Counted from the first letter of the stretch, positions 3,636-64,000 are shown. The stretch is DNA of 64,000 nt from an uncultured Kiritimatiellota bacterium (GCA_934643865.1 CAKUCX010000006.1:16936-80935); one strand, 5' to 3'. Notes: generated by a model not told the origin, from the sequence alone. Translations and numbers: made by a program.

Positions 3636-3682
3636 CTCTTGACGCAAAGGACGCAGAGCCTCTGCGTCCTTTGCGTCAAGAG
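3636..3682 (-). terminator. Perfect 22-bp-stem hairpin overlapping the stop of the AAA/PD-(D/E)XK gene; likely intrinsic terminator
   Basis: CTCTTGACGCAAAGGACGCAGA gcc TCTGCGTCCTTTGCGTCAAGAG. On the minus strand it is followed by CTTTTGCGCCTTTCGTTT. It carries the ACGCAAAG motif shared with hairpins at 40166-40213 and 54247-54292. Confidence 0.5.
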
Positions 3683-5307
3683 AGCCCGCACCCCGCCCCG
3701 TCCGCCGCGACCTCGACCTGGCGGTCGGAGAGGTTGCGCATGTCGGCGTCGAACGCCGCGCCGACGAGCGTGACCTTCTTTCCGCACCGCAGCCACTTCT
3801 CGGCGTAGCCCTTCGCCTTGATCTGCGCGAGCGCGGCGGCGGCCAACACAGATGTCGGCCCTCCTGGGGAGGGACGCGCTCCGTCGCGTCCGCCCGCGCC
3901 CAGCTTGAACTCGAAGACGTAGACGCCGCGCGGCGTCTCCACGACCGCGTCCACGCGCCCCCGGTTCGTCCAGCACTCCGCGTGCGTGCGCGCGCCGATC
4001 AGGACGAAGACCGCGTAGAAGAGCGTCTGGTAGTACTTCTCGCGCTTCACGGTGATGTTCGCCGGGATGTTCGCGAAGAAGCACGAGAGCGCGTCGAGCA
4101 TGTCGTCCACGTCGTCCGCGCGCAGGGCCTCCACCATCTGCGTGAGGAGCGAGGCGTGTTCGGCGGCCGGCAGGGCCGAGAACGCGCGCGAGACGGCCTT
4201 CGAGAAGGCGTTGCGCACCTCGTCGTTCGGGAAGCCGAGCGTGTACTGCGTGTAGACGCCCTCGCGCGCGCTGCCCGTGATCGTCAGGTAGCCCGTCTGG
4301 TAGAGGAGCGGCAGCAGTTCCGGTTCCGAGGGCTCGTAGACCGAGAAGGCCCCTTCGTCCAGCGTCACGCCATCGACCTGCTCCGGCGCGTCCTTGAGCA
4401 GCTGCAGGAGGAACGTCGGCGCCCCCGTCTCGAACCAGTACTCGCCGAACCTACCCGCCGAAAGGCACTTGCCGACCGAGACGGGGTTGAAGACCGGCAC
4501 GGCGTTCTCCGCGAAGCGGTAGCCGTCGTACATCTTCACGAGGTGCGCGAACGTCGTCTCGCCGTCCCAGCCGTAGTTCGCGCCGAGGGCCGCGAGCGAG
4601 GCGGGGAAGTTCGCCTTGACCTCCTCGTGCGTGTAGCCGAAGAGCGTCGCGACGCGCGCGTCCATCGAGAACTCGTTGAGGTTGTTGAGGTCGGAGAAGA
4701 CCGACACCTTCGAGAACTTGCTGACGCCCGTCATGAACGCGAAGCGCTGAAGCCCCTCGCTCGTCTTGATGACGGAGTAGAACTCCTTGAGCGCGTCGCG
4801 GACGTCGTTCACGTCCGGCTTGCCGAGGCGCCCGAGGAGCGGCTTGTCGTACTCGTCGACGAGGAGGACAACCTTCCCGTCCGGGCTGCGTTCCGCGAGA
4901 TCCGAGATCAGCATCTCAAACTGGCCCGAAACCGGAAGGCCCTCGCGCAGGGGAACGCCCAGCCGCTCCGCGTTGCGCAGGAGCTGCACGCGGATCTTCT
5001 GCCAGAGCATGTCCACCGTCGCCGCCTGGCAGCCGGACATGTCGAGCTTGAGGACAGGCCACGTCTTCGACCAGTCCCAGTCCGGCTCGATGGCGAGGCC
5101 CCTGAAGAGGCCGCGCCGCCCCTCGAAGAGGCACTGCAGGGTCGAGACGGCGAGCGACTTCCCGAAGCGGCGCGGGCGCGCGATGAAGAACTGCTTGCCG
5201 AGCGAGCCGTCGGCGAGCGTCTTCAGGATCGCCGTCTTGTCCACGTAGACGAACCCGCCCTCGCGGACGTCGGCGAACGAAAAGGTGTCTGTCGCAATCT
5301 TCTCCAT
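3676..5307 (-). CDS. AAA-ATPase-like protein with C-terminal PD-(D/E)XK nuclease domain (AAA-ATPase_like / PDDEXK_9 architecture)
   Basis: 543 aa. The N-terminus FVYVDKTAILKTL...FFIARPRRFGKSL matches the predicted AAA-ATPase family. The C-terminus RVDAVVETPRGVYVFEFKL is PD-(D/E)XK-like. Confidence 0.7.
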   Translation of the reverse strand: MEKIATDTFSFADVREGGFVYVDKTAILKTLADGSLGKQFFIARPRRFGKSLAVSTLQCLFEGRRGLFRGLAIEPDWDWSKTWPVLKLDMSGCQAATVDMLWQKIRVQLLRNAERLGVPLREGLPVSGQFEMLISDLAERSPDGKVVLLVDEYDKPLLGRLGKPDVNDVRDALKEFYSVIKTSEGLQRFAFMTGVSKFSKVSVFSDLNNLNEFSMDARVATLFGYTHEEVKANFPASLAALGANYGWDGETTFAHLVKMYDGYRFAENAVPVFNPVSVGKCLSAGRFGEYWFETGAPTFLLQLLKDAPEQVDGVTLDEGAFSVYEPSEPELLPLLYQTGYLTITGSAREGVYTQYTLGFPNDEVRNAFSKAVSRAFSALPAAEHASLLTQMVEALRADDVDDMLDALSCFFANIPANITVKREKYYQTLFYAVFVLIGARTHAECWTNRGRVDAVVETPRGVYVFEFKLGAGGRDGARPSPGGPTSVLAAAALAQIKAKGYAEKWLRCGKKVTLVGAAFDADMRNLSDRQVEVAADGAGCGLS

Positions 5308-5399
5308 GCCGCACAGTATAGCACATCACGCGCTTCCAACGCTTAGCACCCGTCAAGAACTGACAGGGAGGACGGCGACGCGCCCGGCGGGCTTTTGCG

Positions 5400-9984: not shown

Positions 9985-10139
9985 GTCCGTCACGCTCTTT
10001 CTGCCCACTTTCAAGCCTACATTATATCATTTTCGTCTCATCGCCCTGGCGAATAAAGATCCGCGCGCAGACGCCATGTTCGATACTCCTTCTGAACTCA
10101 TCCGTGCGGCGTTTGGCCCGGAGGCGGATCGGAAGAAGC

Positions 10140-12334: not shown

Positions 12335-12343
12335 AGTATACCA
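12335..12343 (-). promoter_or_regulatory. Extended -10 element TGGTATACT
   Basis: Minus-strand TGGTATACT lies 20 nt upstream of the GT2 ATG. The same element type recurs upstream of other genes in the window. Confidence 0.4.
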
Positions 12344-20251: not shown

Positions 20252-21121
20252 TCAGAAGTTCGCGACGAGGTGGATGCCGCCGCGCAGGATGCCCGCGTTG
20301 TAGTGGTCGTGGAGGTCGTAGCGGCTGTGGCGCACCTGCCGGCTCAGGCTGTAGTAGTAGGAGAGCGAGCCGCCCACCTTGAGCCATTCGGTAAGCTGGT
20401 AAGAGAGGCCCAGGTCGCTGTGGAAGTTGTTGAACGCAACGCCATTCACGTCGCCCTTCGAGTAGTGGTCCATGTAGGACCCGTTCGCGACGCCGAAGCC
20501 GGAGCCGAGCGTGAGCGTGAGGGCGTCGGTGAGCGCGAAGGCGTGCGAGAAATCGAAGTCGAAGTAGAGCATGTTCTCGTCGTTGTGGCCGTTCGAGTCG
20601 AAGTCCCACCACACGTAGGCGCGCGGCGTGAGGTACGGGTTGCGCCAGCGCACGCCCGCGAGGAACTCGTCCGTCTCGCGCATTCCCGAAGCGTGGCGGT
20701 TCGGGAACTGGTAGAGGATGAAGCCCGTCTCGACGTCGAGGCAGTCGAAGGCCGTGTAGTTGTAACTCACCGTCTCGTCGACGATGCTCATGCCGCCGAA
20801 GCGGTGCGGGCCCTTGTAGCCGTTGATGGCGAAGTTCGACCAGGCGCGCAGCTTGATCTTGCCGTACTCGGCCGCCTCGCCGAGCTTGAGCCAGACGTTC
20901 CCGGCCGGCTGCCACACGGCCGTGTCGAACATGATCTGCCCGCGCCAGATGTAGGCGGAGTAGAACGTCAGCTCCAGATCGAGGTCGACGAAGGCGTCGA
21001 GGAGCGTCTCCGTCTTCTCCTCGGAGACGGCGGGCGGCGGCGCCGGCGAGGAGGTCTTCGTTTCGGCGAAGACGGCGCCCGCGCTGAGGGCCGTCGCGAT
21101 CAGGATGAGTCGTGTATGCAT
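20252..21121 (-). CDS. Putative outer-membrane beta-barrel protein
   Basis: Signal peptide MHTRLILIATALSAGAVFA, alternating beta-strand pattern and a C-terminal ...HLVANF (terminal Phe). The start is set at 21121; the longer track ORF is upstream read-through. Confidence 0.5.
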   Translation of the reverse strand: MHTRLILIATALSAGAVFAETKTSSPAPPPAVSEEKTETLLDAFVDLDLELTFYSAYIWRGQIMFDTAVWQPAGNVWLKLGEAAEYGKIKLRAWSNFAINGYKGPHRFGGMSIVDETVSYNYTAFDCLDVETGFILYQFPNRHASGMRETDEFLAGVRWRNPYLTPRAYVWWDFDSNGHNDENMLYFDFDFSHAFALTDALTLTLGSGFGVANGSYMDHYSKGDVNGVAFNNFHSDLGLSYQLTEWLKVGGSLSYYYSLSRQVRHSRYDLHDHYNAGILRGGIHLVANF

Positions 21122-21128
21122 GCCCCTA

Positions 21129-21137
21129 AGTATAGCA
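21129..21137 (-). promoter_or_regulatory. TGCTATACT extended -10, 7 nt upstream of ATG 21121 (leaderless-type)
   Basis: The minus strand reads TGCTATACT-TAGGGGC-ATG. The same architecture occurs at 28888 and 57781. Confidence 0.45.
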
Positions 21138-27168: not shown

Positions 27169-28794
27169 TCAGGCCCTCCTGGCGGGAAGCTCGGTCTGCA
27201 GGAGGCGCCGCGCCGCGCCCGCGCCGCCGAGGAGCTTCACGAAGTAGTCCTCGATCCGGTCGGCGAGCGGCGTCTTCGTAAGGTCCGTGCCGAAGATGGA
27301 TGCGTTCGCGAGGATGCCGCGCAGCTGGCCGCGGTAGGTGGCGGGGTCGTTCCAGACGATCCCCTTCAGCTGCGCCTGCAGCTCGTCCTTGAGCGGGTCG
27401 GCCGAGACCTCCATCGCCTCGCCCGCGTCGTTGACCGCGAGCAGATAGCGCAGCCAGCCCGCGAGCGCGAGCGGAATCGCGACGAGCGTGCCGAGGTCGC
27501 GCCCGGCGGCGAGGTAGCTCTTCACCGTCTCGCCGAAGCGCACGCCCACCTTCTGCGACGTGTCCGTCGCGATGCGGCGCGGGTCGTCCGGCATGAACGG
27601 GTTCGGCAGGCGTTCGTTGACGACCTCGTCGATGAACGCCTTCGGGGAGATGATCTTCGGATCGACGACGACGGGCAGACCCTCCACGTAGCCGAGGCGC
27701 TTCACGAGGCGCACGATGTCCGCGTCCTTCATCTCCTCGCAGATGAGCGTGTAACCGAGCAGACAGCCGTACATCGCCATCGCCGTGTGGAGCGGGTTGA
27801 GGCACGTCGTCACCTTCATCTTCTCGGTCATGTTCACCGTCGCGCGGTCGCAGAAGTAGACGCCGGCCCGTTCGAGGGGCGGCCGCCCGTTCGGGAAGCG
27901 GTCCTCGACGACGAGGTACTGCGGCTTCTCGGCGTTCACGAACGGCGCGATGAACGTCTTCTTCGACGTGACGACGGGCGCCATGCCCTCGATGCCGTCC
28001 GCCGCAAGGGCCTTCTCGACCATCGGGTGCGGGCGGGGCGTGATCTTGTCGATCATCGACCAGGGGAAGGCGACCTTCGCCTCGTCCTCCAGGTACGCGA
28101 GGAATCCGCCATCCACGAACCCGTCCCCGTGCCAGGCCCGCGCGATCTCGACGACGGCGTTCCGCAGCTTCTCGCCGTTGTGCGAGCAATTGTCCATCGA
28201 GACGACCGCGAGCGGCAGCTGTCCGGCCCGGTAGCGCGCTAGGAGGAGCGCGCAGACGATCGACATCGCGTGGCGCGCGGCGGCGGGGCCCTCCTTCATG
28301 TCCGCCTCGACGACCGGCAGGAGCGCGCCGTCCGGCTTCCGGAGCGCGTAGCCCTTCTCCGTGATCGTGAACGAGAGCATCTTCAGGGAGGGCGCGCGGA
28401 AGATCGCCTCCAGGTGCGCCTTCGCGGTCGCGTCGGAGAAGTCCGCCTTCACGCCCTCGGCGACGCCCGCGAGCACTTCGCGCGTCGTCGTGCCGTCGGG
28501 ATTGAGGAGCACGTTCAGCGTGAGGTTGTCGTGCGGCGCGTAGATCCGGTCGATGATGTCGTAGTCGAACGTATCGCACGCGATGATGCCGGTCTTCGCG
28601 AGGCCCGCGTCCAGGAGACGCTGGTTGAGCGAGCCGATGAAGCCCCGGAAGATGTTGCCCGCGCCGAAATGGACCCACTCGGGGGCGGCCTTCGTCTGCG
28701 CGCGCATGGCGGCGATGTCGAACTTCGGCAGCGCCACGTGCGCGGCCTTCCAGGCATCCGCCTGCGTCAGGATGGAATCGAGCGTCAACTGCAT
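27169..28794 (-). CDS. Mannitol-dehydrogenase-family oxidoreductase (hexuronate: altronate/mannonate oxidoreductase-like)
   Basis: WVHFGAGNIFRGF dinucleotide motif and family-typical length (541 aa). AAGGAG lies 8 nt upstream of ATG 28794. Confidence 0.65.
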   Translation of the reverse strand: MQLTLDSILTQADAWKAAHVALPKFDIAAMRAQTKAAPEWVHFGAGNIFRGFIGSLNQRLLDAGLAKTGIIACDTFDYDIIDRIYAPHDNLTLNVLLNPDGTTTREVLAGVAEGVKADFSDATAKAHLEAIFRAPSLKMLSFTITEKGYALRKPDGALLPVVEADMKEGPAAARHAMSIVCALLLARYRAGQLPLAVVSMDNCSHNGEKLRNAVVEIARAWHGDGFVDGGFLAYLEDEAKVAFPWSMIDKITPRPHPMVEKALAADGIEGMAPVVTSKKTFIAPFVNAEKPQYLVVEDRFPNGRPPLERAGVYFCDRATVNMTEKMKVTTCLNPLHTAMAMYGCLLGYTLICEEMKDADIVRLVKRLGYVEGLPVVVDPKIISPKAFIDEVVNERLPNPFMPDDPRRIATDTSQKVGVRFGETVKSYLAAGRDLGTLVAIPLALAGWLRYLLAVNDAGEAMEVSADPLKDELQAQLKGIVWNDPATYRGQLRGILANASIFGTDLTKTPLADRIEDYFVKLLGGAGAARRLLQTELPARRA

Positions 28795-28817
28795 GTGCCT
28801 GTCTCCTTTTGCCGAGC

Positions 28818-28847
28818 AGTATACCACACGAGCGTTTTGCGGGTCAA
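28818..28847 (-). promoter_or_regulatory. Sigma70-type promoter TTGACC-N18-(TGG)TATACT for the mannitol-DH-family gene
   Basis: On the minus strand, TTGACC is at 28847-28842 and TGGTATACT at 28826-28818. The RBS and ATG follow downstream. Confidence 0.5.
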
Positions 28848-28864
28848 CATGCGCGCCGCGCGAA

Positions 28865-28880
28865 GGGGGGGGGGGGGGGG
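28865..28880. repeat. G16 homopolymer
   Basis: Sixteen consecutive G between the two divergent promoters, at the left edge of the cas remnant. Confidence 0.95.
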
Positions 28881-28887
28881 CAAACTG

Positions 28888-28896
28888 TGCTATACT
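28888..28896 (+). promoter_or_regulatory. TGCTATACT extended -10, 7 nt upstream of ATG 28904 (leaderless-type)
   Basis: The sequence reads TGCTATACT-ACCGAGC-ATG. Confidence 0.45.
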
Positions 28897-28903
28897 ACCG
28901 AGC

Positions 28904-29548
28904 ATGGACGTGAAGCATCTCATTGCCGTGGCCGCCGGCGCGGCGGCGGCCGTGCAGGGACGCCTCTGGCGGCAGGTTGTCCGCGCGAAGATCCTCAACC
29001 AGTCCGAACTGTTGCGCCGTCTGGGATTTGACACATGCCGTCGCCTGCGGGTGATGGCCGACGAGGTGAAGAACTACGATGCGGAGAATGTCGAGGCCCA
29101 GGCGGCGCGCATCTATTTCCGTGCGCTGGCGCCCGATCCCGGATTCGTTCGTGCGCGCGAGGGAACATGGCCGAACCCTGCGCTCAACTACGGCTATGGC
29201 GTCTTGCGGGCGGCCGTCGCCCGTGCGCTTGTCGGTTCCGGGCTCACCTGCTTTCGCGGGGTCCATCACCACAACCGCTACAACGCCTTCTGCCTCGCGG
29301 ATGACATGATGGAACCCTACCGGCCTTTTGTTGATCAGTACGTCTTCGGACATGTTCCGCCTTTCGACGTCCAGGCAACTGAACTGACACGCGAGATGAA
29401 GGCGCGGCTTCTGCAGATGCTGACGTGTGACGTGAAGACGGGTGACCTCAAACGCCCGCTGATGGTCGCCCTGACCTACACGACGGCCTCGCTTGCCAAG
29501 TACTATCTGGGCAAGACCGACCACCTTGTCCTCCCGTCCTTCCTGTGA
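28904..29548 (+). CDS. cas1: Type II Cas1 lacking the N-terminal beta-domain (5'-truncated cas1; ORF still intact)
   Basis: LWRQVVRAKILNQ aligns to SpyCas1 VWTTIIAQKILNQ (around residue 95). Catalytic-region motifs are retained: EAQAARIYF, NYGYGVL, HHHNRYNAF, ADDMMEPYRP. About 90 N-terminal residues have no coding space because the mannitol-DH-family gene is adjacent. Confidence 0.75.
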   Translation: MDVKHLIAVAAGAAAAVQGRLWRQVVRAKILNQSELLRRLGFDTCRRLRVMADEVKNYDAENVEAQAARIYFRALAPDPGFVRAREGTWPNPALNYGYGVLRAAVARALVGSGLTCFRGVHHHNRYNAFCLADDMMEPYRPFVDQYVFGHVPPFDVQATELTREMKARLLQMLTCDVKTGDLKRPLMVALTYTTASLAKYYLGKTDHLVLPSFL

Positions 29549-29892
29549 CGCTCTGTACGCAGACGGCCCTCAACGGATATGCGATTGTGTGGCTCTACGT
29601 GATGTTCGACCTGCCCGTGGAGACCAAGGCGCAGCGCCGCCTGGCGACGCGCTTTCGCAAAGATCTCCTCAAGGACGGCTTTGCCATGCACCAGTATTCC
29701 GTCTACATCCGGCATTGCGCGAGCCATGAGGCCGCAACCGTCCACATCGGACGGATCAAGAGCCTGGTGCCGGACGAGGGACTTGTCTCCATCCTCAAGG
29801 TGACGGACCGCCAGTTCGGCGACACCGTCCAGTTTGTGGGCCGGAAACGGAAGCCGCCTCCGCCGACACCGCTTCAGCTCGAATTTTTCTAG
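29545..29892 (+). CDS. cas2: Type II Cas2
   Basis: WLYVMFDLPVETKAQRRLATRFRKDLLKDGFAMHQYSVY aligns with SpyCas2 [38 protein letters not shown]. The GTG start overlaps the cas1 TGA. Confidence 0.8.
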   Translation: MTLCTQTALNGYAIVWLYVMFDLPVETKAQRRLATRFRKDLLKDGFAMHQYSVYIRHCASHEAATVHIGRIKSLVPDEGLVSILKVTDRQFGDTVQFVGRKRKPPPPTPLQLEFF

Positions 29893-30041: not shown

Positions 30042-31079
30042 TCACCACGGCAGAAACCAGTATACTCCATTGTTTGTTTGAACGTCAATAGCGTCCCATC
30101 CTGGACGGGCGTGGTCGCGGTCAAGGACCCAGCGCGCCGCACCGCGCCATGCTCCCAATGTTCCGCGCCGCGCCCGTCGCCCCGCCTCCGCCTCGCCCAC
30201 TCGCGCCGGGTTCACCAAGGCGTCGATGCGGTTGAGGTAGGCCGTCCGGCTCCTCGGTGTCTCCCGCATCACTTCGGCGTAGACCTCCCGCGCCCGCACC
30301 ACCTCCACGGCATCGTCCACCGCCGGCGTCTCCACGAGCCGCGCCGCCGGTACGGGATCGCGGAGGCCCGTCATCTGCTTGAGCTTCCGCGCGGCCGCCT
30401 TGTAGGCCATCACCGTCTTGTACTTGAGGTAGAGTGCCGGGATGTTCGTCTGGAGCCATGCCTTCACGCCTCCCCGGCGGGCGACGATCTCACCGCTCTC
30501 CGCACGCACAAGGGAACTATCGACGTAACAGGCCAGGTCCTCCATCAACGAGCCGAACCTAAGAAGGTCCTCGTTCGATTCGCGGACTCTCTCCCACGCC
30601 TCCAGCAGCTGTTCCTTCGTCGGGCACGGATTCGTCGTCGTGCGCCGCTTCGCCGCGCGCCGTTCCGCCGCGAGCCGCTGTCGGCGTGCCTTCTCCCGTT
30701 CGTAGTAGGCGGAACGGCGCGACGCATGGCGGAGACGGTCGATCCTCCGCGTTGCGCCGAGGCGCAGCCAGCGCGCGAGCGTCCGCAGCAGCCAGACGTC
30801 GCCGTCCGCGTAGGCGACGATCTCGCGGACGGACGTGCCACGCCGCAGCCACGCGACGGCAAGCCCCTCCGACGCCTCGCAGAGGTCGCCGAAGGCGCGG
30901 CGGCGGTCCTGGATGCGTTTCCGCCGCGCCCGGGCGCGGTGTTCGCGCGCGGCCAGGATTTCGCCCAGCAACGCCTCGTGCCGCCGATCGAAGTCAGACG
31001 AGGCGGCGGAATGAACGGACGCCTCAGGGACGCCGGGGGCGTCTGCCGGGACGACGGTCGTGGAAGGATGTTCAGGCAT
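30042..31079 (-). CDS. Hypothetical Arg-rich protein
   Basis: About 345 aa from MPEHPSTT. No family recognised. TGTTATCAT lies 6 nt upstream of the ATG. The gene is convergent with cas2. Confidence 0.4.
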   Translation of the reverse strand: MPEHPSTTVVPADAPGVPEASVHSAASSDFDRRHEALLGEILAAREHRARARRKRIQDRRRAFGDLCEASEGLAVAWLRRGTSVREIVAYADGDVWLLRTLARWLRLGATRRIDRLRHASRRSAYYEREKARRQRLAAERRAAKRRTTTNPCPTKEQLLEAWERVRESNEDLLRFGSLMEDLACYVDSSLVRAESGEIVARRGGVKAWLQTNIPALYLKYKTVMAYKAAARKLKQMTGLRDPVPAARLVETPAVDDAVEVVRAREVYAEVMRETPRSRTAYLNRIDALVNPARVGEAEAGRRARRGTLGAWRGAARWVLDRDHARPGWDAIDVQTNNGVYWFLPW

Positions 31080-31257
31080 GGGCCTATGATAACACAGGAA
31101 CGGGAGAATGACAAGACTACGGTGCGGACGAAATCCTGTTTTCGCCTTGAACCGTCTCATGGAAAACCAACCGCGTCGAGAGCTGTCGCGCGGGGAGCTT
31201 GAAATCCGCCTTTTGGCATGGATGTTCCCCGGCCAAAGCAGCACGCCCGCCTCCCGT

Positions 31258-39703: not shown

Positions 39704-39712
39704 ATTCTACCA
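39704..39712 (-). promoter_or_regulatory. Extended -10 TGGTAGAAT upstream of tpiA
   Basis: Minus-strand TGGTAGAAT lies about 46 nt upstream of the tpiA ATG, with AGAGGA as the RBS. Confidence 0.4.
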
Positions 39713-46258: not shown

Positions 46259-46267
46259 ATTGTACCA
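46259..46267 (-). promoter_or_regulatory. Extended -10 TGGTACAAT for the HK-RR-STK operon
   Basis: Minus-strand TGGTACAAT lies 28 nt upstream of ATG 46230. Confidence 0.4.
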
Positions 46268-46324: not shown

Positions 46325-46353
46325 TTGCGCGAATGCGCGGGACATGGTATAAT
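46325..46353 (+). promoter_or_regulatory. TTGCGC-N17-(TGG)TATAAT promoter for the TPR gene
   Basis: TTGCGC is at 46325-46330 and TGGTATAAT at 46345-46353. GAGGAAA lies before ATG 46384. Confidence 0.45.
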
Positions 46354-55350: not shown

Positions 55351-57765
55351 CTACCGGGCGGATTTGAGGAGGCGGGGGTTGCGGATCCAGAAGGAACAGG
55401 TCGTGCCCTTGGGGTTGGCACCGAGGCGGATCGCCTTCACGGCGCCGGGCTTCGCGCTGGAAGGGCCGAAGGTGAGGTCGATGCGGCGCGTCTCCCAGCC
55501 CGTGAGCGGGGCGGGGTAGGAGATGAAGCGCGCGTGGCGCGCGGGGTCGGCGAAGACGAGCATGAGGTTCTGACAGGCGAAGTCGTTCTCGACCTTGTCC
55601 TGCGCGCTCTTGACCTCGAACTCGAACATGAGCGCGTCGTCGAAGGCCTCCTCGGGGAGGGTGAGCGTGTAGACGGGGTAGAACCAGCGGTCGGCGGGCT
55701 TCGTCCAGGCGAGGTCGAAGCGCAGGGCCCCTTCGGCTTCATCCCAGACGGCGGCGAAGCGGTCGGCGGAGGTGTTGCGCTGCCAGGCTTTGGGGTCGCG
55801 CCAGTTCCGCAGTACGGTCGTGCGGCAGGTCGCGAGGAACGCCTTCAGGTTGCGTACGGGCATCGCGAGGCGGCTCGTGCGCCGGCCCTCGAAGCGGCCC
55901 GTGAGGACGAGCGGCTCGACGAGCGGCGCGCCCGCGCGCGGGGCGTAGGTGCAGGCGAAGGCGGCCGCGCCCATCGGCGGCAGGGCGATCTCGGCGGGGA
56001 GGCCGGAAAGCGAACCGCCCGCGACGGAGACCGTGCCGCGCTTGGCGACGGGGGAGAGGTTCCAGACCTGGACGCGCAGGCGGCCCGTGTCGGCGCGCAG
56101 TTCGGCGACGGACTTGTGGCTTGCGATGCTAAAGTCGTTCGTGTTGAGGTCGACGCGGAAGACGACGGAGAGGTCTTCGTCCGCCGTCGGGACGGAGGGC
56201 GTGGGCGTGCCGCACGGGAAAGGCGCAATGTCCGCCTTCAGGCCCCGGAGGCCCGAAAGGTAGGCGGTGTAGCGGGTCGCGGTGACGACGTTCGTGGAGA
56301 GGGTGGTGCGCTGTCCGCAGAGGTCGGTGAGCGTGTAGGCGCCGGACGGGGGAATGGGCAGGGTGAGCGTCGCGGCGCCGTCGGGCGTCGCGGCGGCCGT
56401 CTCCGTGGCGGTGTCGACGGGCGACACGCGCCAGAAGGCGAGCGTCTGCGAGCCGTCCGGCTGCGCGAAGAGGTAGCCCTTGAACGCCTCGCCGAGCCGG
56501 ACCTCGCCTTCGAGACGGGCGGCGGCGAGTTCGCGCGTGATCGCGCTCATCGCGGCGTAGGTGGGCTTGACGGTGCCGTCGCGGCGCATCACGCCCCAGT
56601 CCTTTGCGCCGTTGCGTTCGTTGTAGGCGCCGAAGACGAAGAAGTAGTTGCGCGAGACGCCCTGCATCTGGAAGGCGATCTGGCTCTTGGCGTAGAACTC
56701 GGCGTGGATCAGCTCCTGGGCGGGCGAGTGGGCCTTCTGTCCCTTGACCGCGCCGTCTTCGTCCGAATGGCCTTCGAGGTTCGTGCCGCTCTCGGTCATC
56801 CACACGGCGCGGCCCGCGATGCCGGCCTTCTCCATGAAGGCGCGCAGCTCGCGGAAGATGGCGGGGTAGCGGCTGAGCGGGGCGTAGGTATGGAAGTTGA
56901 AGACGTCGGAATACTTCGCCGCGTCGTTCGCGTAGAGGCCCGCGTCGTAGGCGGTGCGCGTCGCGTGGCAGACGGCGCCGGGGAGGACGGGCATCGCGGG
57001 CCGCGCGGCCTTGAAGCCGAGGTAGGCGGCCTTGAGGGCGGCCACGTAGTCCCAGACGGGCTCGGGGGCGAAGGCGATGTCCTGCTCGTTCCAGAACTCC
57101 CAGTCGCCCATGCGGTCGCCGAAGGCGGCGGCGGTGTCGCGGCAGAAGGCGTAGAGGGCGGCGAGGTTGCGGGGAAGCTTCTCGATGCGGTCCATGTAGT
57201 CCGGCACGTCGTGGAACATGCCCGAGACGCGCATGCCGCGCGCCTGGAGCATATCCGCGTTGTACATGTAATAGGAATAGTCGTAGACGCCTGGGCGCGG
57301 ATTCACTTCGGCGGCGCGCAGGCGTTCGCGCACGTGGGCGAGGCCGGTGCGCCAGAGGAGGTCGCTTACGAGGCGGTAGGTGTCGCCGCCGTACCAGGGG
57401 CATTCGAAGCTGCCGGGGTGCGAGACCCAGCTCTGCGCGGAGTCGACGCCGTAGAAGGAATCGTCGGTGCGCACGCGGCCCTCGGGCACCGGCACGACGG
57501 CGAAGGTGGCGTCCGCGCCCGCACCCTTCAGGTGGTAGTAGCCGACGGGACGCTTCCCGAGCGCGGCGCATCCGTCCGGCGCGAAGGTGCCGGAGGCCAG
57601 GGCACGCCCGCGCCAGTCCGTGAGCGTCCACGCCGCCCCGGCGGCGCCGCCCCGCGCGGTCGCCCGCTCCCGGTCCGTGTAGACGTGCCCCGGCGCGTCA
57701 AGGGTCAACTTCGCCTGCCCTGTCAGCAGGACGCCCGCCACCAGCGTAAGGAAGATTGTCTTCAT
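55351..57765 (-). CDS. Secreted glycoside hydrolase, clan GH-A-like TIM barrel with C-terminal beta-sandwich domains
   Basis: Signal peptide MKTIFLTLVAGVLLTG and an acid/base-like DWEFWNEQD. About 804 aa from ATG 57765. The upstream 180 codons of the track ORF are read-through. Confidence 0.5.
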   Translation of the reverse strand: MKTIFLTLVAGVLLTGQAKLTLDAPGHVYTDRERATARGGAAGAAWTLTDWRGRALASGTFAPDGCAALGKRPVGYYHLKGAGADATFAVVPVPEGRVRTDDSFYGVDSAQSWVSHPGSFECPWYGGDTYRLVSDLLWRTGLAHVRERLRAAEVNPRPGVYDYSYYMYNADMLQARGMRVSGMFHDVPDYMDRIEKLPRNLAALYAFCRDTAAAFGDRMGDWEFWNEQDIAFAPEPVWDYVAALKAAYLGFKAARPAMPVLPGAVCHATRTAYDAGLYANDAAKYSDVFNFHTYAPLSRYPAIFRELRAFMEKAGIAGRAVWMTESGTNLEGHSDEDGAVKGQKAHSPAQELIHAEFYAKSQIAFQMQGVSRNYFFVFGAYNERNGAKDWGVMRRDGTVKPTYAAMSAITRELAAARLEGEVRLGEAFKGYLFAQPDGSQTLAFWRVSPVDTATETAAATPDGAATLTLPIPPSGAYTLTDLCGQRTTLSTNVVTATRYTAYLSGLRGLKADIAPFPCGTPTPSVPTADEDLSVVFRVDLNTNDFSIASHKSVAELRADTGRLRVQVWNLSPVAKRGTVSVAGGSLSGLPAEIALPPMGAAAFACTYAPRAGAPLVEPLVLTGRFEGRRTSRLAMPVRNLKAFLATCRTTVLRNWRDPKAWQRNTSADRFAAVWDEAEGALRFDLAWTKPADRWFYPVYTLTLPEEAFDDALMFEFEVKSAQDKVENDFACQNLMLVFADPARHARFISYPAPLTGWETRRIDLTFGPSSAKPGAVKAIRLGANPKGTTCSFWIRNPRLLKSAR

Positions 57766-57772
57766 GGGCGGT

Positions 57773-57781
57773 AGTATAGCA
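57773..57781 (-). promoter_or_regulatory. TGCTATACT extended -10, 7 nt upstream of ATG 57765 (leaderless-type)
   Basis: The minus strand reads TGCTATACT-ACCGCCC-ATG. Confidence 0.45.
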
Positions 57782-60245: not shown

Positions 60246-63200
60246 CTACTTGCCGCCGGCCGCCAGCGGCCTTTCGCTGACCCAGACCTTGAAGAAGCCG
60301 GACGGGCTGCCGACGGGCTTCCTGACCACGAGACGGGTCGCGGCCGTGGCGGGCGCGGACGCGCCGGGGCAGACGAGCCCGTCCAGCGACGCCGCAGACG
60401 CCGCCGCATAGTAGAGCCCCGGCACGATCTCGACGTTCAGCGTCACGCTCCCCTCGCCGTCTTCCGTCCACGGCCCGTCCGCGATCGCCCCGGATCTCTC
60501 CACCTCGAACGGCGCCTTGAGCGCGACGACCGCCGTCGCGCCGCCGGACGCGATCTCGACCCTGTACGCCTTCCGCGCCACGGGGAAGGCGAAGTCGGAC
60601 TCCGCCAGGGCCACGCCTTCATTCGCCGTCACGACATAGCGGCCGTCACCGCTTTCCGCAATCGTCCCCTTGCCGCCGACGCTGAAGGTCGGCTGGGCAG
60701 GGCCGTCGTGCCATTCGACCGTCATGCCCTGCCACGTGCCGCCCGTCACCTCGTAGGTCGCATTGTTCCTCGGCAGCCGCACGACACAGGCAGCGGAAAC
60801 CCCGTTGAACGCTCCATCCATGTCAACAGTCGGCGCATCGCCGTCAAACGTCACGCTCGTCAGCCCGCTGCAGCCTGAAAACGCATCATACCCGATGCTC
60901 GTCACGCCGGCGGGGATTGTCACGCTGGTCAGACTGCTGCAGTCTTCAAACGCTTCATACCCGATGCTCGTCACGTCGGCGGGGATCGTCACGCCTGTCA
61001 GCCCGCTGCAGCCTTCAAACGCATAGGCCTCGATGCGCGTCACGCCATCGGGGATCGTCACGCCCGTCAGCCCACTGCAGCCGGAGAACGCACCTTTCCC
61101 GATGCGCGTCACGCCGTCGGGGATCGTCACGCCTGTCAGCCCGCTGCAGTCTGAAAACGCCCACTTTCCGATGCTCGTCACGCCGTCGGGGATCGTCACG
61201 CTTGTCAGCCCGCTACAGCCTTCAAACGCCCCTCCCCCGATGCCGCGGATTCCCGTCAGATCCAAGCTGCCGGAAAGAGAATCGGAGCATCCAACCGCCC
61301 ATCCATCGACGAGCTTGACGCCCGAAATCGTGTTCGTGTCAAAGAGCGCGTCGCTGCAGGCAGAGAACGCATTCCACCCGATACTCGTCACGCTGGCGGG
61401 AATCGTCACGCCTGTCAGCCCGCTGCAGCCGGAGAACGCTTCGTCCTCAATGATTGTCACGCCGTCGGGGATCGTCACGTTCGTCAGGCCGCTGCAACCC
61501 TCAAATGCATTCCACCCGATGCTCGTCACGCTGGCGGGGATCGTCATGCCCGTCAGCCCGCTGCAACCGGAGAACGTCCCATCCCCGATGCTCGTCACGC
61601 CGTCGGGGATCGTCACGTCCGTCAGGCCGCTGCAGCCCCCAAACGCATACTCCCCGATGCTCGTCACGCCGTCGGGGATCGTCACGCTTGTCAGCCCGCT
61701 GCAGCCTTCAAACGCCCCGCCCCCGATGCCGCGGATTCCCGTCAGATCCAAGATTCCGGAAAGAGAATCGGAGCATCCAACCGCCCATCCATCGACGAGC
61801 TTGACGCCCGAAATCGTGTTCGTGTCAAAGAGCGCATCGCTGCAGCCGGAGAACGCATTCCACCCGATACTCGTCACGCTGGCGGGGATCGTCATGCTTG
61901 TCAGGCCGCTGCAGCCTGAGAACGCCCAGTCCCCGATGCTCGTCACGCCGTCGGGGATCGTCACGTCCGCCAGCCCGCTGCAGTCTGAGAACGCCCAGTC
62001 CCCGATGCGCGTCACGCTGGCGGGGATTGTTACGCTTGTCAGCCCGCTGCAGCCTGAGAACGCCCCGCCCCCGATGTCCGTTACGCTGGCGGGGATCGTC
62101 ACGTCCGCCAGCCCACTGCAGTCTGAGAACGCCCAGTCCCCGATGTGCGTCACGCTGTCGGGGATCGTCACGCCCGTCAACCCGCTGCAGCCCTGGAACG
62201 CATAGTCCCCGATGCTCGTCACGCCGTTGCCGATCGTCACGCTTGTCAGCCCGCTACATCCCCGGAACGCATAGGCCCCGATGCGCGTCACGCTGGCGGG
62301 GATCGTCACGCTCTCAAGGCCCGCGCAACCTTCGAACGCCCCGTCCTCGATGGATGTCGTGCCGACCGAAATGACAAGGTTGGTCAAATTGTCGAGCGGA
62401 AGGTCACACCGGACTCCCGGCAGGCACGCCTCACGCACGTTGTTGCAGCCGGCAAAAGCCCCATATCCGATGTCCGTCACGTCGGCGGGGATCGTCACGC
62501 TCGTCAGCCCGCTGCAGCCGGCGAACGCCCAGTCCCCGATGTGCGTCACGCTGTCGGGGATCGTCACGCCCGTCAACCCGCTGCAGCCCTGGAACGCATA
62601 GTCCCCGATGCTCGTCACGCCGTTGCCGATCGTCACGCTTGTCAGCCCGCTACATCCCCGGAACGCATAGGCCCCGATGCGCGTCACGCTGGCGGGGATC
62701 GTCACGCTCTCAAGGCCCGCGCAACCTTCGAACGCCCCGTCCTCGATGGATGTCGTGCCGACCGAAATGACAAGGTTGGTCAAATTGTCGAGCGGAAGGT
62801 CACACCGGACTCCCGGCAGGCACGCCTCACGCACGTTGTTGCAGCCGGCAAAAGCCCCATATCCGATGTCCGTCACGTCGGCGGGGATCGTCACGCTCGT
62901 CAGCCCGCTGCAGCCGGCGAACGCCCCATACCCGATGCTCGTCACGCCGTCGGGGATCGTCACGTCCGCCAGCCCGCTGCAGTCTGAGAACGCCCAGTCC
63001 CCGATGCGCGTCACGCTGGCGGGGATTGTTACGCTTGTCAGCCCGCTGCAGCCTGAGAACGCCCCGCCCCCGATGTCCGTTACGCTGGCGGGGATCGTCA
63101 CGTCCGCCAGCCCACTGCAGTCTGAGAACGCCCAGTCCCCGATGTGCGTCACGCTGTCGGGGATCGTCACGCCCGTCAACCCGCTGCAGCCTTTAAACGC

Positions 63201-64000
63201 CCCGCCCCCGATGCCGCGGATTCCCGTCAGATCCAAGATTCCGGAAAGAGAATCGGAGCATCCAACTGCCCATCCATCGACGAGCTTCACGCCTTGAACC
63301 GTGTTCGTGTCAAAGAGCGCATCGCTACATTCTTCAAACGCCCCGATCCCGATGCTCGTCACGCCGTTGCCGATCGTCACGCTTGTCAGCCCACTGCAGC
63401 CGTAAAACGCTCCGTTCCCGATGCGCGTCACGCCGTCGGGGATTGTTACGCTTGTCAGCCCGCTACAGCCGGAGAACGCAGAGGCCCCGATGCTCGTTAC
63501 GCTGGCGGGGATTGCCACGCCTGTCAGCCCACTGCAGTCCTTGAACGCAGAGGCCCCGATGTCCGTCACGCTGACGGGGATCGTCACGCCTGTCAGCCCG
63601 CTGCAGCCGTAGAACGCATAGGCCCCGATGCTCGTCACGCCGTCGGGGATCGTCACGCTTGTCAGCCCGCCGCAATCCTCAAACGCAGAGTCCCCGATGT
63701 GCGTCACGCTGGCGGGGATCGTCACGCCCGTCAACCCGCTGCAGCCCTGGAACGCAGAGGCCCCGATGCTCGTCACGCCGTTGCCAATCGTCACGCCTGT
63801 CAGGCTCTCACAACCGTAGAAAGCGGATTCCCCGATGCTCGTCACGCCGTTGCCGATTGTCACGCTTGTCAGTCCGCTGCAATCCTCAAACGCAGAGTCC
63901 CCGATGTGCGTCACGCTGTCGGGGATCGTCACGCCCGTCAACCCGCTGCAGCCCCGGAACGCATAGGCCCCGATGCTCGTCACGCCGTTGCCGATTGTTA
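60246..64000 (-). CDS. BspA-type leucine-rich-repeat (LRR_5) giant surface protein, 5'-partial (continues beyond window)
   Basis: There are more than 45 repeats of the form IPxxVTxIGxxAFxGCSGLTSVT. The reading frame is still open at 64000. The C-terminal ~190 aa are non-LRR. Confidence 0.85.
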   Translation of the reverse strand, partial: TIGNGVTSIGAYAFRGCSGLTGVTIPDSVTHIGDSAFEDCSGLTSVTIGNGVTSIGESAFYGCESLTGVTIGNGVTSIGASAFQGCSGLTGVTIPASVTHIGDSAFEDCGGLTSVTIPDGVTSIGAYAFYGCSGLTGVTIPVSVTDIGASAFKDCSGLTGVAIPASVTSIGASAFSGCSGLTSVTIPDGVTRIGNGAFYGCSGLTSVTIGNGVTSIGIGAFEECSDALFDTNTVQGVKLVDGWAVGCSDSLSGILDLTGIRGIGGGAFKGCSGLTGVTIPDSVTHIGDWAFSDCSGLADVTIPASVTDIGGGAFSGCSGLTSVTIPASVTRIGDWAFSDCSGLADVTIPDGVTSIGYGAFAGCSGLTSVTIPADVTDIGYGAFAGCNNVREACLPGVRCDLPLDNLTNLVISVGTTSIEDGAFEGCAGLESVTIPASVTRIGAYAFRGCSGLTSVTIGNGVTSIGDYAFQGCSGLTGVTIPDSVTHIGDWAFAGCSGLTSVTIPADVTDIGYGAFAGCNNVREACLPGVRCDLPLDNLTNLVISVGTTSIEDGAFEGCAGLESVTIPASVTRIGAYAFRGCSGLTSVTIGNGVTSIGDYAFQGCSGLTGVTIPDSVTHIGDWAFSDCSGLADVTIPASVTDIGGGAFSGCSGLTSVTIPASVTRIGDWAFSDCSGLADVTIPDGVTSIGDWAFSGCSGLTSMTIPASVTSIGWNAFSGCSDALFDTNTISGVKLVDGWAVGCSDSLSGILDLTGIRGIGGGAFEGCSGLTSVTIPDGVTSIGEYAFGGCSGLTDVTIPDGVTSIGDGTFSGCSGLTGMTIPASVTSIGWNAFEGCSGLTNVTIPDGVTIIEDEAFSGCSGLTGVTIPASVTSIGWNAFSACSDALFDTNTISGVKLVDGWAVGCSDSLSGSLDLTGIRGIGGGAFEGCSGLTSVTIPDGVTSIGKWAFSDCSGLTGVTIPDGVTRIGKGAFSGCSGLTGVTIPDGVTRIEAYAFEGCSGLTGVTIPADVTSIGYEAFEDCSSLTSVTIPAGVTSIGYDAFSGCSGLTSVTFDGDAPTVDMDGAFNGVSAACVVRLPRNNATYEVTGGTWQGMTVEWHDGPAQPTFSVGGKGTIAESGDGRYVVTANEGVALAESDFAFPVARKAYRVEIASGGATAVVALKAPFEVERSGAIADGPWTEDGEGSVTLNVEIVPGLYYAAASAASLDGLVCPGASAPATAATRLVVRKPVGSPSGFFKVWVSERPLAAGGK
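62127..62926. repeat. Perfect 396-bp tandem duplication (2.02 units) inside the LRR gene
   Basis: 62127-62530 reads identically to 62523-62926 in a line-by-line comparison. The encoded 132-aa block is duplicated exactly. Confidence 0.85.

Follow-up and report, generated by a model that had tools for sequence, protein, structure and literature searches.

A -10 box close to the start codon in five genes

We analysed a 64,000-nt stretch of DNA (CAKUCX010000006.1:16936-80935, on contig C6 of assembly GCA_934643865.1; hereafter the window) from an uncultured gut Kiritimatiellae bacterium of the PVC superphylum, represented by a metagenome-assembled genome (MAG) of 3.31 Mb in 122 contigs with 68% G+C. 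At five sites in the window an extended -10 box lies 6 or 7 nt in front of the ATG of a gene, an architecture that an earlier note on this stretch had read as a sign of leaderless mRNAs; genes with this layout are called leaderless-type here. Spacing refers throughout to the number of nucleotides between the end of the -10 box and the start codon (N7 = 7 nt). The consensus that we use for the box is TG[C/G]TATA[A/C]T, also written TGSTATAMT, and TGNTANNNT designates a looser class.

The box TGCTATACT at 21129-21137 (minus strand) is followed by a spacer of N7 (TAGGGGC) and the ATG at 21121-21119, which opens a gene (20252-21121, minus) for a 289-aa secreted protein whose signal peptide begins right behind the ATG. 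The same arrangement is found at 57773-57781 (minus; N7, ACCGCCC; ATG 57765-57763), where the gene (55351-57765, minus) encodes an 804-aa secreted protein that likewise carries a signal peptide at its ATG, and at 28888-28896 (plus; a TGTG-type box; N7, ACCGAGC; ATG 28904-28906) in front of a truncated cas1. The weaker box TGTTATCAT at 31086-31094 (minus) lies N6 from the ATG at 31079-31077 of a gene for a 345-aa protein (30042-31079, minus) with no Pfam match. The earlier note had placed box-to-ATG units at 21119-21137 (minus), 28888-28906 (plus), 57763-57781 (minus) and, for the weaker box, 31077-31094 (minus), and all four are present as described. It had missed another copy of TGCTATACT at 5315-5323 (minus), preceded by a TG (TGTG) and separated by N7 (GTGCGGC) from the ATG at 5307-5305 of a gene (3676-5307, minus) for a 543-aa AAA-ATPase_like and PDDEXK_9 protein. 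The N7-ATG layout is thus found in all four TGCTATACT copies of the window, and 100 dinucleotide-preserving shuffles gave 0 matches.

Two descriptive points of the earlier note need qualification. The 289-aa protein, labelled an 'OM barrel' (outer-membrane barrel), had neither a Pfam match nor a sequence match in the PDB, and for the 804-aa 'GH-A hydrolase' there was no Pfam match and the PDB sequence search gave nothing useful, so that both labels are unconfirmed by these searches. The ACCG with which two of the spacers begin reflects no general preference: this continuation follows 4 among the 80 copies of TGCTATACT listed, and A occupies the first spacer position in ~22% of sites.

Both the 543-aa and the 345-aa proteins have paralogues elsewhere in the genome. 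A paralogue of the gene at 3676-5307 on contig C23 carries an identical box-N7-ATG module, and the gene at 30042-31079 has a paralogue on C24 with the same box-ATG module. The AAA-ATPase_like and PDDEXK_9 family has at least five paralogues in the genome (3676-5307, minus, and others on C23, C17, C1 and C4), all with a box at N6 or N7 from the ATG; the leaderless-type promoter is used family-wide.

Spacing and start-codon specificity across the genome

The earlier note had proposed a genome-wide search for enrichment of its motif close to start codons, and this search was positive. The genome holds 122 copies of TGCTATACT, compared with 4.3 expected from mononucleotide composition or 0.5-1.5 from Markov models, and sibling boxes are enriched likewise (TGGTATACT, 95 copies; TGGTATAAT, 63; TGCTATAAT, 40). 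Taking the 320 boxes of the form TG[CG]TATA[AC]T together, a start codon lies at 6, 7 or 8 nt in 47, 73 and 31 cases, respectively, with ~10-15 at other offsets, and two thirds of the start codons at these three distances are in frame with a called gene. Hexamers of the form TANNNT lacking the TG showed no spacing peak whatsoever in a genome-wide scan.

The peak is specific for ATG. Downstream of the 998 boxes of the TGNTANNNT class, ATG occurs at 6, 7 and 8 nt in 67, 102 and 45 cases against a baseline of 10-20, and the profiles of GTG (14, 17 and 12 at the same distances), TTG and CTG after these boxes are flat, without a peak. The GTG profile is flat despite the fact that GTG makes up 26% of the starts led by a Shine-Dalgarno (SD) element. 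A second, smaller excess of ATG was seen at a spacing of 10 (43, vs 28 at 9 and 21 at 11); it may represent mRNAs with 2-3-nt leaders or a second start-site register.

Genes were predicted with a codon-usage caller made for this analysis (1955 genes, of which 1870 complete; short genes were missed). A box lies 5-10 nt before a candidate start in 196 of the 1870 complete genes (10.5%), whereas the neighbouring 6-nt bins contain 26-46. Among operon-first genes, ~164 of ~1142 (14%) are of the leaderless type, as estimated from the classes of upstream neighbours. The extent is therefore put at approximately 170-200 genes, that is, roughly 10% of genes and ~14% of those that are first in an operon.

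The box has the features of a promoter

The same box is found upstream of genes that are not translated. It lies 9-34 nt (mostly 12-23 nt) ahead of 19 of the 47 tRNA genes, often with a -35-like element, ccccTTGCGC, ~17 nt further upstream. The tRNA promoters have no CATG at the corresponding place, which indicates that the promoter as such does not include the ATG. When the 196 protein-gene sites were aligned, a T was present two bases ahead of the TG in 167, with a purine between them in 72%, so that the box reads TRTGnTATAcT and includes a '-16' motif; an A/T-rich stretch lies immediately upstream. In place of the TTGCGC of the tRNA promoters, the leaderless class has only a weak T-G-G-C preference ~17-20 nt upstream. 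A '-16' extended -10 of the TRTG type is typical of Gram-positive sigma-A promoters.

The spacer of 6-8 nt is G+C-rich, not purine-rich, and contains no SD element. Of 120 sites with a spacing of 6 or 7 nt, 115 have a pyrimidine directly before the ATG (C in 109), compared with 60% at SD-led starts (p=5e-18). A pyrimidine at -1 followed by a purine at +1 is the start-site preference of bacterial transcription, known from E. coli start-site studies. Leaderless-type genes also differ from other genes in their position: a co-directional gene ends <40 nt ahead of 8% of them, compared with 36-39% of other genes (p=4e-18), and 38% have a divergent upstream neighbour, compared with 14-17% (p=4e-18).

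The same boxes also serve genes with leaders. On the minus strand, TGGTATACT at 28818-28826 is followed by 23 nt with AAGGAG and then by a mannitol-dehydrogenase-family gene with its ATG at 28794; a second TGGTATACT (12335-12343) has a leader of 20 nt, TGGTAGAAT (39704-39712) one of 44 nt with AGAGGA, and TGGTACAAT (46259-46267) one of 28 nt with AGGTGA. On the plus strand, TGGTATAAT (46345-46353) precedes a 28-nt leader with GAGGA. These are the five boxes that the earlier note had cited as having normal leaders, and each was confirmed, with leaders of 20-44 nt carrying purine-rich SD-like elements. A further case is TGATATAAT at 10021-10029 (minus), with a purine-rich leader of 36 nt. The presence of the same boxes 20-44 nt ahead of SD-bearing leaders bears out the suggestion that two modes of initiation coexist. 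The 3′ end of 16S rRNA in a congener and in three other members of the order is GGATCACCTCC, in which the anti-SD sequence CCUCC is intact; the SD route is therefore taken to be intact as well.

A different function for the box would be that of a ribosome-binding site (RBS). It could act post-transcriptionally, as an A/U-rich non-SD RBS or enhancer within a longer 5′ untranslated region whose transcription starts further upstream, much like the sites of GeneMarkS-2 group B. The box does sit about as far from the start codon as an RBS would be expected to, promoters and RBSs can share the 6-8-nt window (GeneMarkS-2, PMC6028130), and some Verrucomicrobiota (Akkermansia) are reported to be SD-scarce (PMC10783764). 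The Bacteroidota-type RBS of group B, however, precedes all genes, operon-internal ones included (PMC6028130), whereas the box described here is depleted before operon-internal genes. An RBS would also not be expected ahead of 19 tRNA genes or upstream of leaders that carry their own SD element, the TG/TRTG extension is typical of contact with sigma, the pyrimidine-purine step at the ATG is a feature of transcription starts, and the anti-SD is intact in relatives. We consider an RBS function very unlikely, and the features above point instead to a genuine sigma-70-type extended -10 promoter rather than a translation signal.

The adjacent ATGs as probable protein N-termini

Signal-peptide-like N-termini were predicted behind 31% of the box-adjacent ATGs and 25% of SD-led starts, but behind only 1.7% of the Met codons inside these genes. 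In a sample of ten leaderless-type proteins the Pfam model starts within residues 1-25 in every case. The sample comprises an EF-G-like protein, ArgJ, a SpoU methylase, Sir2 and a type II secretion system (T2SS) ATPase, together with a FliR-type exporter, a GntR/LacI regulator, a beta-CASP nuclease, a YgiQ radical SAM protein and a SASA esterase; the leaderless-type set as a whole is functionally diverse and has housekeeping genes among its members. The five window proteins, when translated from the box-adjacent ATGs, match public gene calls letter for letter, and in three of their clusters the protein lengths in public calls are uniform from this ATG.

These results bear on the possibility that the promoters are real and the adjacent ATG is not the start codon, translation beginning further downstream behind an SD element so that the annotated N-termini are too long. 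In high-G+C genomes, true starts are indeed preceded by long open frames; in 132 of the 196 genes a candidate start lies further upstream than the leaderless-type ATG, which makes the choice of start generally ambiguous; and in the family of the gene starting at 31079 the N-terminus varies among public gene calls (309-345 aa). A peak at 6-8 nt that is confined to ATG, however, would be unexpected if this codon were irrelevant. Signal peptides follow the box-adjacent ATGs directly at a normal rate, Pfam models start within residues 1-25, lengths counted from this ATG are uniform in the clusters of three window proteins, and orthologues keep the position of the ATG. A downstream start is thus highly improbable as a general explanation, and the box-adjacent ATGs appear to be the true N-termini.

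Conservation and distribution among relatives

For the 289-aa gene (20252-21121), 6 of the 12 loci in the same genus have TG[C/G]TATA[A/C]T 6-7 nt before the ATG, and the spacers at these six loci are unrelated (TAGGGGC, GAAACC, GCTGGC, GTGGGC, CACGCCA and CACGACA). Another 5 of the 12 have longer, purine-rich or SD leaders. A TGNTANNNT box, in differing variants, lies 6-8 nt from the ATG in 12 of the 17 homologues of the 804-aa gene (55351-57765) with at least 61% identity; in more distant homologues from Lentisphaerae and Victivallales no TGNTANNNT box was present at 6-8 nt. ArgJ is of the leaderless type in this genome (TGGTATACT-N7) and in a congener (TGATATAAT-N7), and in this genus only: in families f11 and f12 its box is TGGCATACT or TGACATACT, followed by a leader of ~30-50 nt, and the f11 leaders carry an AGGAG-type SD. 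From these orthologue comparisons it follows that the box and its distance are constrained and the spacer is not, and that little evolutionary distance is needed for a gene to change from one mode to the other.

The pattern TGSTATAMT-N6-8-ATG was then counted per genome in 151 genomes of the phylum. There are 125 sites in this genome and 72-85 in others of the same genus. Two further genera of the family have 29 (g13) and 5 (g14). Within the same order, genus g11 of family f11 has 15-55. Family f9 has 38, families f6 and f10 have 8-9, other orders of the class 0-4 and the rest of the phylum mostly 0-8. A reversed-pattern control gave about 0 in these genomes. With the spacing displaced to N13-15 as a control, counts were 8 for this genome, 9-13 for its congeners and 0-7 for f11, whereas f9 and f10 reached 19 and 11, respectively. 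An excess tied to the spacing is therefore present in this genus, in one or more sister genera and in family f11. As the scan sees one strong type of box, its absence elsewhere means absence of this box and not of leaderless genes.

That the recurrence is an artefact of copied promoter cassettes or mobile modules, with no general bearing on initiation, is scarcely credible. In its favour, the cas1 site is a copied module, and for two of the five sites in the window the complete 5′ module recurs at a paralogue elsewhere. The 196 genomic sites nevertheless fall into 189 sequence clusters, with only seven pairs having common flanking or downstream sequence, so that duplication does not explain their number. 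Spacers and upstream flanks differ freely, and orthologues from other species combine this spacing with other variants of the box.

A model for leaderless-type expression

The interpretation that we favour is that these promoters set the start of transcription on or next to the ATG and that leaderless-type expression is a genome-wide habit of this bacterium. We regard this as very probable on the evidence of the DNA sequence. The reading of the earlier note is thereby supported by each of the indirect tests made, the main lines being the tRNA boxes, the ATG-specific peak, the pyrimidine at -1, the position in operons, the N-termini and the conservation.

The housekeeping sigma factor (sigma-70/sigma-A type) would recognise TRTGn-TATAcT with little help from a -35. 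The promoter consensus would be W-W-T-R-T-G-n-T-A-T-A-c-T with a weak -35, placed 6-8 nt (mode 7) from the start codon. The open complex would set the start on a purine 7-9 nt after the hexamer, with a C preceding it, and RNA polymerase would then begin at the first base of the ATG or one or two nucleotides ahead of it, to give a transcript that opens with AUG or with one or two extra bases. An mRNA of this kind would have no space for an SD element, and a leaderless route of translation would therefore be needed, in which a ribosome carrying initiator tRNA would bind the 5′-terminal AUG directly. Leaderless translation depends on a 5′ AUG (PMC10783764), and the restriction of the peak to ATG fits this route for that reason. 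The remaining genes would use conventional SD-led initiation.

Several points weigh against this interpretation or limit its reach. The sequence shows what the box is, how far it lies from the start, its preference for ATG, its place in operons, the validity of the N-termini and the conservation in relatives; the transcript 5′ ends, the positions of the transcription start sites and the mode of translation are features that we infer. At the modal spacing of N7 the canonical +1, which is the seventh base after the -10 hexamer, would be the C before the ATG, so that some of the mRNAs may carry a leader of 1-2 nt and not be strictly leaderless. Additional upstream promoters that give rise to leadered isoforms are possible. 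The percentages given above are approximate, and the gene caller is crude and misses short genes. The anti-SD was read in four relatives only, the MAG being without a 16S 3′ end. Finally, the earlier note had offered its three sites as unrelated examples; the sites are real, but that at cas1 is not independent of the rest, as it is a duplicated promoter module fused to a probable gene remnant (see below).

Comparison with known leaderless systems

In the classification of GeneMarkS-2, group C is defined by operon-first genes whose start is 6-8 nt away from a Pribnow box; the group comprises 90% of Actinobacteria and 97% of Deinococcus-Thermus and is rare elsewhere (PMC6028130). The genes described here share with those of group C (M. 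tuberculosis, Streptomyces, Corynebacterium) and with the TA-led genes of Zheng et al. (2011; PMC3160421) the -10 element at 6-8 nt, the lack of room for an SD, the coexistence with SD-led genes and a signal that can be detected genome-wide by sequence. They differ in that nearly all boxes are TG-extended, with a strong TATAcT and TRTG, whereas high-G+C Actinobacteria have a bare TANNNT (PMC3160421). The share of operon-first genes, ~14%, is lower than the 25-50% of group C (PMC6028130). Kiritimatiellae, and with them this part of the PVC superphylum, are not among the lineages named in PMC6028130 or PMC3160421. Further differences from group C-type genomes are that the start codon is essentially only ATG and that the distribution is patchy below the level of the order.

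Differential RNA sequencing of D. deserti was reportedly published by de Groot in 2014. In Deinococcus, -10 motifs 6-7 bp before open reading frames (ORFs) have been shown experimentally to drive leaderless genes (PMC12340547). Like the '-10 region adjacent to ORFs' of Deinococcus-Thermus, the box studied here is conserved across homologues, and genes with classical -35/-10 promoters and RBSs are present alongside. In Deinococcus-Thermus the evidence comes from RNA sequencing and reporters, and the architecture involves ~30% of ORFs across the phylum (PMC12340547), whereas here it was recognised from sequence, involves ~10% of genes and is found in some families of one order.

Sigma-A promoters with an extended -10 (TGn) or '-16 region' have T-R ahead of the TG, and their -35 is weak or dispensable. 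The promoters analysed here resemble this class in having the TG one base upstream of the hexamer and in serving protein and tRNA genes alike. The extended -10 is, however, a class of promoter and not an mRNA architecture, and its systematic fusion to the start codon is specific to the present case.

The architecture is thus the known leaderless type of group C in a new lineage, and no new mechanism is involved. A literature search retrieved no paper that links leaderless genes to Kiritimatiellae or Verrucomicrobia, with Akkermansia listed only as SD-scarce (PMC10783764). On balance, we are inclined to think that a clade of gut and rumen Kiritimatiellae, comprising two or more families of a single order, is an undescribed leaderless-rich lineage of the PVC superphylum, with a strict TRTGn-TATAcT box, a requirement for AUG and flips between leaderless and SD-led expression within a genus. 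Examples of such flips are the 289-aa gene (the OM-barrel-like one of the earlier note) and ArgJ, both of which have the leaderless form in some species and a leader in others.

If this is correct, the clade offers a natural series for the gain and loss of 5′ leaders, and leaderless initiation would here be recently derived and not an ancient relic. Frequent leaderless expression would extend to the PVC superphylum, where it would be unevenly distributed, limited to certain clades and evolutionarily labile. This bears on the debate on whether leaderless initiation has been kept as a relic from an ancestor or has been repeatedly re-invented. There is also a practical side. Gene finders that rely on SD elements only misplace starts most in leaderless-rich genomes (PMC8153819), and the box-N6-8-ATG rule could be a cheap and precise predictor of start codons and promoters for these uncultured gut and rumen bacteria.

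The copied module at cas1

The gene behind the box at 28888-28896 is a chimeric, N-terminally truncated cas1 (28904-29548, plus; 214 aa) that matches only positions 99-256 of the Pfam profile Cas_Cas1, and cas2 (29545-29892, plus) follows. An intact locus elsewhere has the order cas9-cas1-cas2, with a Cas1 of 298 aa. DNA homology of the window cas1 to the intact cas1 begins at 28937, 11 codons past the ATG. A 79-nt module (~28876-28954), which spans the box and spacer together with the first ~17 codons, was copied from the 5′ end of a gene on contig C93, which it matches at 92%. This source is a large secreted-protein gene at C93:5080, which itself has the box-N7-ATG layout.

The in-frame upstream extension of cas1 (28583-28903) was rejected as a part of the gene, as it is not Cas1-like. 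The minus-strand neighbour was likewise rejected as cas9: it starts at 28794 and is the mannitol-dehydrogenase-family gene mentioned above. A 1156-aa ORF that overlaps it gave only a weak beta-helix match. The region at 28876-29892 looks like a decayed remnant of a type II CRISPR-Cas system, with truncated cas1 and cas2, without cas9 and with no obvious array.

A homopolymer of 16 G (28865-28880, plus) ends 7 nt upstream of the box of the cas1 remnant. The tract has 17 G in another sample and 5 G in the parent copy on C93, and one contig breaks at it. In one sample the upstream region of C93 (99% identical) is joined straight to the cas1 remnant. The module is thus found in alternative joins in different samples (28876-29892; L091, L122-L124; C93:4681-5131); these reflect either recombination or assembly ambiguity.

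Poly-G tracts within or just upstream of leaderless-type promoters were noticed at several other loci (C17, C38 and C90) in the form TTGAC-G(9-13)-TAAATGGTAGAAT-N6-ATG. Phase-variable promoters have this layout. Runs of at least 13 G or C number roughly 34 in the genome, compared with ~3.5 by our own composition-based estimate (~10x). Those at contig ends (C69 and C122) look like sequencing artefacts.

Other repeats

An 8-bp unit, (AGTGGTTA / AGTAGTTA)n, recurs in tandem arrays that are scattered over the genome, for example at C3:23632 and on C11, C59 and C77, with some on C6; these arrays are the source of the genome's most over-represented 9-mers (~180-255 copies). A second family of repeats, AGATTATTACGCG...GAAATCTCAT, has spacings of ~101-115 bp and a core 9-mer with 81 copies (for example at C8:51-1086); it may be a CRISPR-like array or one resembling repetitive extragenic palindromic (REP) elements. 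Within the window, near-identical segments of at least 85 nt that contain GGGGATTGTTACGCTTGTCAGCCCGCTGCAGCC lie at 62028, 63027 and 63444 (plus), inside an ORF at 60246-63983 (minus), and are internal repeats of this large protein gene.

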